Positions 38,430 to 40,415 of a stretch of DNA of 64,000 nt are shown here, in pieces. The notes under the pieces were generated by a model that saw only the letters and a list, made by a program, of their open reading frames with translations, did no database searches and had not been told where the DNA came from. Positions within the stretch are counted from its first letter, which is position 1, and each line of letters starts with the position of its first letter. The DNA lies in sequence record PP047753; one strand, written 5' to 3'. The position numbers were made by a program, and so were the translations under genes. This DNA comes from Escherichia phage KEP3.

Positions 38430-38436
38430 AAAGCTG

Positions 38437-38464
38437 TTGACATAGAAAATTTGGTGAGTATACT
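38437..38464 (+). promoter_or_regulatory. sigma70-like promoter TTGACA-N16-TATACT reading into GT-rich array
   Basis: TTGACA 38437..38442, TATACT 38459..38464; immediately after ligase stop. Confidence 0.5.
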
Positions 38465-38485
38465 GAGCAGCATAAACCAACGGGT

Positions 38486-38830
38486 ACTCACCAGCATCAC
38501 TTAAGAGTCTTTTAAAAGGGTTTTTAAGTGATGTCCGGTCGGGTGAGGTAGGGTTAAGTATTGTCCGGTACGGTCGGGTAAAGTACGGTACGGTAAGGCA
38601 AAGTAGGGTATGGGTAGTTAGTCTCAGCTACATTAAAATGAGACTTACCTTTTTAAAAGGTCTTTAAAGAGGGTCTTTTAATGAGGTGGGGTCTGGTTTG
38701 GTATGGTAATGTGAGGTATGGGTCAGGTGGGGTGAGGTGTAGTTAGGTCTGGTATGGGTGGATGGTAGTAGCCACGTTAAAAATCTACCAAGTTTCTAAA
38801 GAGTCTTCTGTTGAGGGTTCTTTACAAACA
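38486..38830 (+). repeat. GT-rich modular repeat array L (hairpins, AAGAGGG boxes, GG-doublet tracts)
   Basis: Modules shared with array R; hairpins 38620..38645 and 38764..38789. Confidence 0.6.
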
Positions 38831-38865
38831 ACTTAACAATAAACTAAAGTGTGGAGCTAAATGCT

Positions 38866-39453
38866 ATGAAACTGTTAAATATCAAAATCACTGGTACTCG
38901 TCCTTTCCTGAGCCACGCTGATACGCTGTCAGACCCATTAAATCCTCTGACAAAATATCACAAGTCTCTGTCCAGTAAACGTAAAAAGACTGACGAAGAC
39001 TATGCGCTCTTAGCAGAAAGCCAACTGGTAACTTCTTGTTACTACGATGAGCAACTGGGTTTTGTTATGAACGGTGAGATGATTGAGGCTTGCATTAAGT
39101 CTGGTGCGAAACTCAACAAACTTGGTAAGGTAATTGACCGAGCCATTATGCTGACAGATGTAGTCTTCCCAATGACTATCAAGAACTGTCCAGCAAACCC
39201 ACAAGAACTTGCTAAGAATCCAGACTTTATCTATGCTAAGTCTGTTAAGATTGGTACAGCACGAGTTATGAGCTACCGTCCAATCTTCCGTGACTGGTCT
39301 GTAGAGTTCGGTTTGATGTTCGATGAAGAGCAAATCACCAGAGAGGAACTTCTGATGGTTCTGGAAAATGCTGGTAACCTTTGTGGTGTAGGTGATTGGC
39401 GTCCACGCTTTGGTCGTTTTTCTGTAGAAGTTATTTCAGAAGGTAACGTTTAA
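38866..39453 (+). CDS. hypothetical protein (196 aa), first gene of repeat-flanked cassette
   Basis: ORF; GTGGAG RBS-like; no motif recognised. Confidence 0.55.
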
Positions 39454-39455
39454 TT

Positions 39456-39896
39456 ATGAATACAAAAGCATTAGCAGCAAAGTTTAGTTACGGTGACACT
39501 GTATCACACTCTGAGATGGATACCTTCTTAGGTATTGTGAAGCCAACTTATCAAGGTGACATTGTTAAGTACGAAGATGAAATGAAGGCTTATGCACTTA
39601 CACGCCTAAACCGACTTGAGAAGTTTATTGAGAAGCTTCTTAAAGAAGAGAAGATTTATCTGGTTGCTTCAATGGGTGTTGGTTATCGTGTGGTTGAACC
39701 TAAGCATCAAGCAACTATTGCAAAACGTAAAATGTCTGGTAAGATTGGTCGCGCTTTAAAGCAAGCCACTCAAGCGATTGAGAATGTGAACACTATGGCA
39801 CTTAGCCATCAAGAACGCTCACGACTGATTGAACAGCAAAACCATTTAGCTGCTATGAAAGCTAACATTAACAAGCAACGTAGAAAACCTTTCTAA
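39456..39896 (+). CDS. hypothetical protein (146 aa), second gene of repeat-flanked cassette
   Basis: ORF followed by intrinsic terminator. Confidence 0.55.
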   Translation: MNTKALAAKFSYGDTVSHSEMDTFLGIVKPTYQGDIVKYEDEMKAYALTRLNRLEKFIEKLLKEEKIYLVASMGVGYRVVEPKHQATIAKRKMSGKIGRALKQATQAIENVNTMALSHQERSRLIEQQNHLAAMKANINKQRRKPF

Positions 39897-39907
39897 GTTG
39901 ACTAGGT

Positions 39908-39930
39908 AGCCTCTTCGGAGGCTCCTTTTT
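39908..39930 (+). terminator. intrinsic terminator after the repeat-flanked cassette
   Basis: AGCCTC-ttcg-GAGGCT followed by CCTTTTT. Confidence 0.55.
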
Positions 39931-40325
39931 AAAAGGTCTTTAAGAGGGTCTTTTAATGAGGTTTGGTATGGTCAGGTATGGTGTGGTGTTGTAAGGTTTG
40001 GTGCGGTCAGGTTAGGCTTGGTATGGGTAGTTAATCGGAGCTACATAAAAATCCGATTACATCACTTAAGAGTCTTCTAAGAGGGTTTTTAAGTGGTGTT
40101 TGGTAGGATAGAGTAAGGTAAGTTAAGGTAGGGTGAGGTCTGGTATGGTAAGGTAATGTATGGGTAGTTAGTCTCAGCTACATTAAAATGAGACTTACCT
40201 TTTTAAAAGGTCTTTTAAGAGGGTCTTTTAACAAGGTATTGTATGGTGTAGTTTGGTTAGGTATGGTTAGGTGTGGTAAGGTAAGGTATGGAAGGATGGC
40301 AGTAGCCTTATAAAAAATCTGCCAA
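39926..40325 (+). repeat. GT-rich modular repeat array R (about three modules)
   Basis: Hairpins 40033..40058, 40170..40195 (identical to 38620..38645), 40298..40323. Confidence 0.6.
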
Positions 40326-40327
40326 AT

Positions 40328-40371
40328 AAGCTATAAAATCTGTTGACAAGTCAGGTGTTATAGCTTATTTT
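40328..40371 (+). promoter_or_regulatory. promoter-like TTGACA embedded in 9-bp perfect inverted repeat (candidate operator)
   Basis: AAGCTATAA (40328..40336) and TTATAGCTT (40358..40366) flank TTGACA (40343..40348); weak -10 TATTTT at 40366..40371. Confidence 0.45.
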
Positions 40372-40415
40372 TATACTCAATGTAATACAAAATTTAATAT
40401 AACTTTGAGGTCATT

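Follow-up and report, generated by a model that had tools for sequence, protein, structure and literature searches.

Here, we describe a locus at positions 38430-40415 of a 64,000-nucleotide stretch of Escherichia phage KEP3 (sequence record PP047753; the whole stretch is referred to below as the window), and we identify it as a type II Viral Interference Programmable Repeat (VIPR) system of the SUSP1 clade, consisting of the genes vipr and vap and five guide RNAs, the vrRNAs. We put the probability of this identification at about 94%. It follows from protein identity, predicted fold, conserved contact residues, the grammar of the repeats, the structure of the RNA tails, the linkage of gene and arrays in other viruses, and matches to targets. 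The element is already known, VIPR having first been described in two 2026 preprints; the initial annotation of this DNA, made from the sequence without database searches, was right to single it out, as nothing else in the region is as interesting, but not to take it for an undescribed one.

VIPR is a CRISPR-like (clustered regularly interspaced short palindromic repeats) form of RNA-guided silencing that phages use against rival mobile elements (bioRxiv 10.64898/2026.04.26.720920 and 10.64898/2026.04.26.720927). Its parts are Vipr, a protein of ~20 kDa with a single RRM, a G-loop and a thumb that is proposed to be an ancestral RAMP, the accessory protein Vap, and vrRNAs of ~100 nt, each with 9-16 YNNGG repeats and an invariant tail that contains a pseudoknot in the SUSP1 clade (10.64898/2026.04.26.720920 and.720927). 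For SUSP1 itself, the same preprints report expression, ribonucleoprotein formation, a rule by which target bases are skipped, silencing and structures; discrete small RNAs acting in trans were detected, and a satellite phage in E. coli genomes is the main target of the clade's guides (10.64898/2026.04.26.720920 and.720927). By cryo-electron microscopy (cryo-EM), each GGY is held by Vipr protomers (10.64898/2026.04.26.720927).

Organization of the locus

Two long non-coding stretches, 38430-38865 and 39897-40415, enclose open reading frames (ORFs) at 38866-39453 and 39456-39896 and, as the initial annotation had it, both are built of the same modules. There are five modules of ~135 nt, two upstream of the gene pair and three downstream; in each, a conserved box is followed by 12-16 YNNGG pentamers in strict phase and then by a hairpin. 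The five align with a mean column identity of 72%, and a repeat search returned a 104-nt family with four copies and a 151-nt pair at 81%. GGT reaches a maximum density of 15 per 100 nt, where the window averages 1.34 (sd 1.43), and within the window a + strand density of at least 8 per 100 nt is reached in the arrays only. The motifs of the box, the loop and the junction TATGGGTAGTT cluster in the arrays, and their exact forms are absent from the rest of the 64 kb; with 1-2 mismatches allowed, scattered near-matches are also found outside the arrays.

The initial exclusion of a CRISPR array, a tRNA and a plain terminator stands. CRISPR arrays have near-identical repeats of 23-50 nt separated by spacers; here the unit is 5 nt long with three conserved positions, and the modules are 62-81% alike. 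Searches of Rfam at both gathering and permissive thresholds gave nothing relevant.

The Vipr and Vap proteins

The two genes between the arrays are as follows.

38866..39453, + strand: vipr, encoding a 195-aa RAMP protein (assigned by its match to PDB 36pp_D, its contact residues and its model fold)
39456..39896, + strand: vap (Vipr-accessory protein), 146 aa, starting 3 nt after the end of vipr

The gene pair had been regarded as a cassette of unknown function, a view that comparison with solved structures overturns. The Vipr profile matches PDB entry 36pp, ‘SUSP1 Vipr protein’, over its full length (residues 1-190, E 6e-79), and the products of vipr and vap are 97.9% and 99.3% identical, respectively, to those of the related contig L022, which we take to be SUSP1. 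Among 14 published contact residues that were checked, 13 are kept, which hold GGY and the DNA strands (H17, K33, R39, E71, M72, K82, G87, K88, R138, C173, D177, W178 and R179); at position 175 the protein has V where the preprint says T, and the SUSP1 sequence in PDB also has V there.

An alignment of 49 Vipr homologues displays the glycine-rich loop typical of CRISPR RAMP proteins. The AlphaFold model of Vipr (mean predicted confidence, pLDDT, 95.4) has 45 structure matches at E <= 0.001, all of them RAMP subunits of class 1 CRISPR effectors, in a structure library that predates the Vipr entry; the top matches are mostly Csm3 and type VII Cas7, with Cmr4 also present, at a TM score of about 0.5. 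The two proteins fall into PHROGs families phrog_4652 (Vipr) and phrog_5926 (Vap), both labelled ‘unknown function’, and a Pfam search found no family for either. By analogy with SUSP1, the Vipr of this phage would polymerise along the vrRNA, and Vap would have the accessory, DNA-binding role given to it in the preprint.

The vrRNA tracts

The five repeat tracts are all on the strand of the genes.

38534..38613, + strand: vrRNA1 tract, 16 YNNGG units
38682..38757, + strand: vrRNA2 tract, 15 units, with a 1-nt phase slip after unit 8
39957..40026, + strand: vrRNA3 tract, 14 units
40099..40163, + strand: vrRNA4 tract, 13 units, with degenerate GG in units 2, 3 and 5, near the 5' end
40232..40291, + strand: vrRNA5 tract, 12 units

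Their 12-16 units lie within the range of 9-16 given in the preprint. The initial annotation had noticed tracts of GG doublets spaced 2-5 nt apart; the GG tracts are real, and their spacing is in fact a strict 5-nt register, Y-N-N-G-G. To characterize this register, we compared the window with 34 related loci, giving 113 modules. The tracts are hypervariable, with 88 distinct ones among the 113 modules and lengths of 55-106 nt that step in fives. Over 1071 units from 86 distinct tracts, the pentamer reads T (87%), N, N, G (79%), G (95%); a pyrimidine follows GG in 97% of units (T 87%, C 10%), and the two N positions carry only 0.06-0.10 bits each. Since GGY is conserved and NN holds almost no information, only GGY is under selection, at an exact 5-nt period. 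The tracts are 44% G and 7.6% C.

The guide of vrRNA1, read as its NN dinucleotides, is CC CG GA AG TA AT CC AC CG AA AC AC AA AA AG AT. In vrRNA2, one extra G shifts the pentamer register (TATGGGTCAGG at 38717-38727), and this RNA could be a fused pair of tracts or a disabled guide. Mini-ORFs starting from the ATG after AAGAGGG were considered and set aside, as they are not conserved and a period of five excludes coding.

Structured tails and conserved boxes

Each tract is followed by a tail with two short helices, denoted S1 and S2.

38614..38645, + strand: vrRNA1 tail, S1 GTAG/CTAC, S2 AGTCTCA/TGAGACT
38758..38789, + strand: vrRNA2 tail, S1 GTGG/CCAC, S2 GGTAG/CTACC
40027..40058, + strand: vrRNA3 tail, S1 GTAG/CTAC, S2 AATCGGA/TCCGATT
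40164..40195, + strand: vrRNA4 tail, same sequence as the vrRNA1 tail
40292..40323, + strand: vrRNA5 tail, S1 AAGG/CCTT, S2 GGCAG/CTGCC

The hairpins are of four types whose stems differ by compensated changes, as had been noticed within this sequence, and the stems also covary in relatives. One S2 pair of the vrRNA3 type is G-C, G-U or A-U across relatives, a series which indicates that the RNA of the + strand is selected. The hairpin loop had been described as nearly constant. The loop is present, and its 5' half is the part that varies (CTAC, CCAC or CCTT), in step with the 4 nt that immediately precede the stem (GTAG, GTGG or AAGG); this co-variation points to an H-type pseudoknot. Across 32 distinct variants, the two-helix pseudoknot model has 94.3% of its cells paired, compared with 27-38% in slid controls. 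Both sides have changed in 9 of the 11 pseudoknot pairs, and S1 is 99.2% paired. The initial annotation had proposed a GU-rich structured leader RNA: a structured RNA with covarying stems is what we see, except that it is not a leader, as the arrays encode discrete vrRNAs. One further reading, of an antisense (NNACC)n RNA serving as a Rho loading site, was rejected because selection, judged by the G.U pairs and the pseudoknot, acts on the + strand.

Each repeat tract has a conserved box in front of it, and a remnant lies in the leader of vipr.

38494..38534, + strand: box A before vrRNA1, predicted 19-bp G.U-rich hairpin
38653..38681, + strand: box B between vrRNA1 and vrRNA2, predicted 13-bp G.U-rich hairpin
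38790..38825, + strand: degenerate box remnant in the leader before vipr
39929..39956, + strand: box B before vrRNA3
40059..40099, + strand: box A before vrRNA4
40203..40231, + strand: box B before vrRNA5

The boxes are predicted to form hairpins of 13-19 bp with 4-5 G.U pairs each, which fold only as + strand RNA. They are nearly invariant across relatives, so the fold is without covariation support, and the outer stem is broken in some variants. The boxes may mark a 5' boundary or a processing site. Two other ideas about the box were dropped: a cold-shock-protein site, as GTCTTTT is a listed B. subtilis CspB motif that has no tie to the locus, and a nut/rrn boxA look-alike with a GT-rich boxC.

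Linkage of gene and arrays in other viral contigs

A scan of public viral contigs for (GGTNN)6GGT, that is, seven in-phase GGT triplets, returned at least 120 loci. Many of these matches are simple microsatellites; among the matches listed, 65 loci have degenerate, high-entropy arrays, mostly in phages unrelated to Felixounavirus. When the ORFs neighbouring these arrays were clustered, the largest family by far was that of the Vipr homologues, found at 35 of the 65 loci. Their genes lie within a few hundred nt of the tracts, and in all 35 loci the tracts are on the strand of the gene, usually 0-100 nt away and upstream, downstream or on both sides. The presence of one protein family next to same-strand tracts in 35 of 35 loci makes the protein and the arrays one system, and bears out the initial view that the arrays and the two genes form a unit. 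At the other 30 loci (among L035-L154), some of them on truncated contigs, no Vipr homologue was detected by BLAST in the 3 kb around the arrays; these loci may hold divergent Vipr proteins or orphan arrays.

The scan also turned up other arrangements. Arrays adjoin genes for a UvsX-like recombinase and a clamp in other phages, and in L050 and L076 the array directly follows the UvsX-like recombinase gene. Different array designs are seen in L037 (6114-6498), L154 (4602-5048), L144 (88-343) and L044 (10111-14027, in a 189-kb contig). Some of these have 6-7 back-to-back tracts of 10-14 units, punctuated by GGCTA or GGCAG only and with no hairpin, and in one design the tracts lie between successive genes of a contig of jumbo-phage size. 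These designs are probably other VIPR types.

Predicted targets in an E. coli satellite

Among 5,426 complete E. coli genomes searched at the DNA level, 152 chromosomes have a vrRNA-like tract of ~90 nt. Six of the 152 loci were fetched, and the guides were scanned against both strands under the rule of a 1-nt skip. Most of the fetched loci hold an island of ~11 kb, at wrbA-ymdF or at other sites such as the DUF72 gene next to yecN. The island contains a serine recombinase, baseplate and tape-measure genes, an HNH endonuclease and small genes of unknown function, together with one promoter-driven vrRNA that has a b1-like tail and a terminator; it has no vipr. The extents of the island in three of these loci are given below; some other copies (L155 and L157) are riddled with insertion sequences.

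L156, 5350-16100: satellite island
L159, 4276-14880: satellite island, with its vrRNA at about 13990-14110
L158, 3940-15900: satellite island

Three of the five guides match this island. The best match of vrRNA1, 29 of 32 positions (91%) in L157 and 27 of 32 in L156 and L158, lies in the first gene of the island, and that of vrRNA3 (23/28, 82%, in L160) is on the opposite strand of the same gene. For vrRNA5 the best match (22/24, 92%, in L159) covers the island promoter TTGACA-N17-TAGTAT, from just upstream of the -10 box to about +22. At both coding sites, the skipped base is the third position of the codon. When the order of their units is shuffled, the guides reach at most 19-22 matches (<=79%), and within the window no self-target exceeds 71%. 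The pattern extends to relatives, with 42 of 86 distinct tracts matching the six satellite loci at >=80% and none of the 86 shuffled controls doing so. These matches, obtained from independent data, reproduce the skip rule and the natural target of the preprint. We infer from the sequence matches that the guides of this phage are aimed at the ~11-kb satellite in E. coli chromosomes. The 185-aa target gene of the satellite was considered as a possible Vipr and rejected (hhalign probability 0.3%).

Proposed mechanism and comparison with known systems

As published for SUSP1, one Vipr protomer would bind per repeat, giving a helical filament. The filament would bury every GGY and present the NN dinucleotides, which would pair with double-stranded DNA while every third target base is skipped, and the bound complex would block transcription. 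By this mechanism, vrRNA5 would lie over the -10 box and start site of a satellite promoter, and vrRNA1 and vrRNA3 on the two strands of its first gene. By analogy, we infer that the five RNAs of this phage are made and would act as in SUSP1.

Besides its nearly identical proteins, the locus shares with SUSP1 the YNNGG vrRNAs, the tail of hairpin plus pseudoknot, the same flanking genes, and predicted targets in an E. coli satellite of the same kind, where the skipped base falls on the codon wobble position. It differs in having two upstream vrRNAs and five in total, where SUSP1 has one and four, in the NN sequences of its guides and in the phase slip of vrRNA2; it is also known from sequence alone.

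The resemblance to the backbone of class 1 CRISPR-Cas systems (Cas7, Csm3 or Cmr4 on crRNA) lies in the RAMP fold with its G-rich loop, in one protomer per fixed number of guide nucleotides, in a structured handle capping a variable guide, and in a target that belongs to a rival element. In contrast, the KEP3 locus has no repeat-spacer array, is limited to vipr and vap as protein genes and is encoded by a virus. Its period is 5 nt rather than 6 nt, with three guide bases in five hidden and two target bases in three read.

Two RNA-binding systems are similar in parts. TRAP sites in Bacillus consist of at least 11 GAG or UAG triplets with free 2-nt spacers, each triplet held by one subunit of the oligomer. 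The likeness is a run of conserved triplets with free 2-nt spacers in single-stranded RNA; here, however, the triplet is GGY, the spacers bear information, the protein would form a RAMP filament rather than an 11-mer ring, and the outcome would be DNA targeting rather than attenuation. A TRAP-like ring binder was an early lead that proved right in kind and wrong in protein. The operator of T4 gene 32 mRNA has a pseudoknot beside an unstructured repeat region that the protein coats cooperatively. That operator acts on translation in cis and holds no guide, whereas the KEP3 pseudoknot follows the tract on its 3' side, and the RNAs would act in trans.

Relatives lacking vipr

The element goes unmentioned in the genome papers on Felix O1, wV8 and UAB_Phi87, and GenBank records of relatives annotate it at most as a bare ‘repeat_region’ or ‘DR_4’. 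The number of modules ranges from 0 to 5 across relatives. Both vipr and vap are absent from 12 of the 34 related loci, of which nine keep one or two modules and three keep none. The converse arrangement, a relative with the cassette and no arrays, was not found.

In Felix O1a (L005, 2436-2717) the cassette is missing and one module separates the ligase gene from the downstream gene; SP116 (L006, 6200-6430; L161 and L162) has two modules. The complete SP116 genome contains no Vipr homologue (best E 0.73, with a control at 1e-81). Other loci with modules and no vipr are L009, L018 and L031-L034, and the tails are intact in all these phages. In seven vipr-negative loci that were examined, 70% of the YNNGG units are perfect, compared with 76% in vipr-positive loci, and 6 of their 12 distinct tracts match the satellite at >=80%. 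The satellite is in a similar position, in that it likewise has a vrRNA and no vipr.

Either these orphan RNAs are useful without a Vipr encoded in cis, or the loci are recent deletions. It seems to us rather unlikely that the orphan modules of Felix O1-type phages whose genomes are without any vipr, such as SP116 and Felix O1a, are functional rather than decaying, whether by borrowing Vipr from a co-infecting relative or by acting as decoys for it.

Genome setting and neighbouring features

KEP3 is a Felix O1-like myophage (Felixounavirus), and the 6 kb around the locus match 259 phage records, mostly at 90-95% identity. Upstream are the genes for DNA polymerase (33317-36046) and an ATP-dependent ligase (37293-38429); downstream are a conserved small gene (40416-40799) and then a helix-turn-helix (HTH) regulator. 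The locus is part of a rightward gene island of 10.6 kb, the rest of the genome being leftward, and GC skew tracks the direction of the genes with no switch at the arrays. The predicted transcription signals are as follows.

38437..38464, + strand: predicted sigma-70-like promoter P1, TTGACA-N16-TATACT, 11/12 consensus positions, reading into the upstream array
39905..39930, + strand: intrinsic-terminator-like hairpin after vap (GC stem, TTCG loop, T-run)
40343..40377, + strand: promoter-like P2 for the downstream genes, TTGACA-N17-TATTTT, 10/12, within a 19-nt inverted repeat

The P1 promoter agrees with the one proposed in the initial annotation, and the site carries a promoter annotation in phage AYO145A. 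The two arms of the 19-nt inverted repeat (40324-40370, 89% complementary, 9-nt gap) lie on either side of the P2 -35 box, just past the last vrRNA tail; the repeat is a possible operator for the downstream HTH regulator.

Elsewhere in the window, the divergent intergenic region 33090-33316, between the leftward gene block and the DNA polymerase gene, includes a 21-22-bp tandem repeat at 33164-33207 (TTTTAAAAGCTATTAAAGAATC x2). This could be a regulatory or origin-type region, unrelated to the VIPR locus. The ACC-dense regions of the window (44618-44753, 54615-54789 and 61011-61173) were considered as arrays, as were GGT-dense spots upstream of the ligase gene in relatives; all are ordinary coding sequence.

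Alternative explanations

Several points weigh against the identification and the mechanism attached to it. The mechanism rests wholly on two 2026 preprints without peer review. The published VIPR model, as given in the main text of the preprint, offers no explanation for the conserved 5' boxes. In the six scanned satellite loci, vrRNA2 (63%) and vrRNA4 (69%) have no target at >=80%. Lastly, about half of the Felix-like genomes are without vipr and vap yet retain well-formed vrRNA modules. We also considered four other explanations of the arrays.

The one that survives best, while still improbable, is that the arrays are mainly recombination substrates, their direct repeats letting the cassette be gained, lost or duplicated. 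The varying module number and the 12 loci without vipr and vap are in its favour, as are seven vipr-less loci whose box and tail combinations are those expected from deletion between flanking modules. The initial annotation had suggested such a role, and the hybrid arrays of one or two modules in cassette-less relatives show repeat-repeat deletion to be plausible, as a side effect only: recombination explains the polymorphism, but leaves the constancy of GGY beside free NN, the covariation in the pseudoknot and the matches to targets without explanation.

Somewhat less probable still are cis-acting RNA operators, in which the cassette protein would coat the unstructured GGU repeats of its own transcript starting from the pseudoknot and so autoregulate translation or stability, in the manner of T4 gene 32 protein on its mRNA or of TRAP on GAG/UAG repeats. 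Gene and tracts are always adjacent on the same strand, one protein per 5-nt repeat is a real binding mode, and the vipr start codon is 76 nt from the end of the last upstream tail. However, even near-identical phages differ greatly at the NN positions, which match a foreign element at 82-96%, unlike shuffled guides, and an operator has no use for such features; three of the five modules lie beyond the terminator, far from any ribosome-binding site, and the preprint finds discrete small RNAs acting in trans.

We regard a replication origin as very improbable, whether with iterons bound by the cassette protein or as a promoter-driven R-loop origin of the kind seen in T4 oriF/oriG and ColE1, where the G-richness of the non-template strand would favour a stable RNA-DNA hybrid. 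The adjoining DNA polymerase and ligase genes would suit it, as would the strong predicted promoter reading into a G-rich, C-poor tract and the arrays located beside UvsX-like recombinase and clamp genes in other phages. Against it, GC skew does not switch at the arrays, conservation covers only three of five nucleotides, tracts and gene share a strand in 35 of 35 loci among the matches listed, the G.U pairs and pseudoknot point to selection at the RNA level, and the protein is a Cas7-like RAMP rather than an initiator. The iteron-type origin of the initial annotation fails on these grounds, and no repeat of iteron size (~17-22 bp) is present besides the whole modules.

Tandem two-tetrad G-quadruplexes in DNA or RNA, whose formation the initial annotation proposed to test, would regulate transcription or replication. 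They are formally compatible with GG-N3 spacing, but we give them almost no weight, as the pyrimidine after GG in 97% of units is nothing that a quadruplex loop needs and published cryo-EM shows every GGY bound by protein (10.64898/2026.04.26.720927).

Implications

The type II VIPR reading of this locus brings with it a gapped code, in which two guide bases are read and three are hidden, and one target base in three is skipped. Vipr is proposed to predate the RAMP proteins of CRISPR. The repeat grammar, the pseudoknot, the gene-array linkage and the targets were rediscovered here independently from raw sequence, which supports preprints that are awaiting peer review. The KEP3 locus adds a five-guide variant with predicted sites on the promoter and first gene of the satellite. 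Many Felix O1-like phages, some of them used for typing or biocontrol, carry guide RNAs without Vipr.

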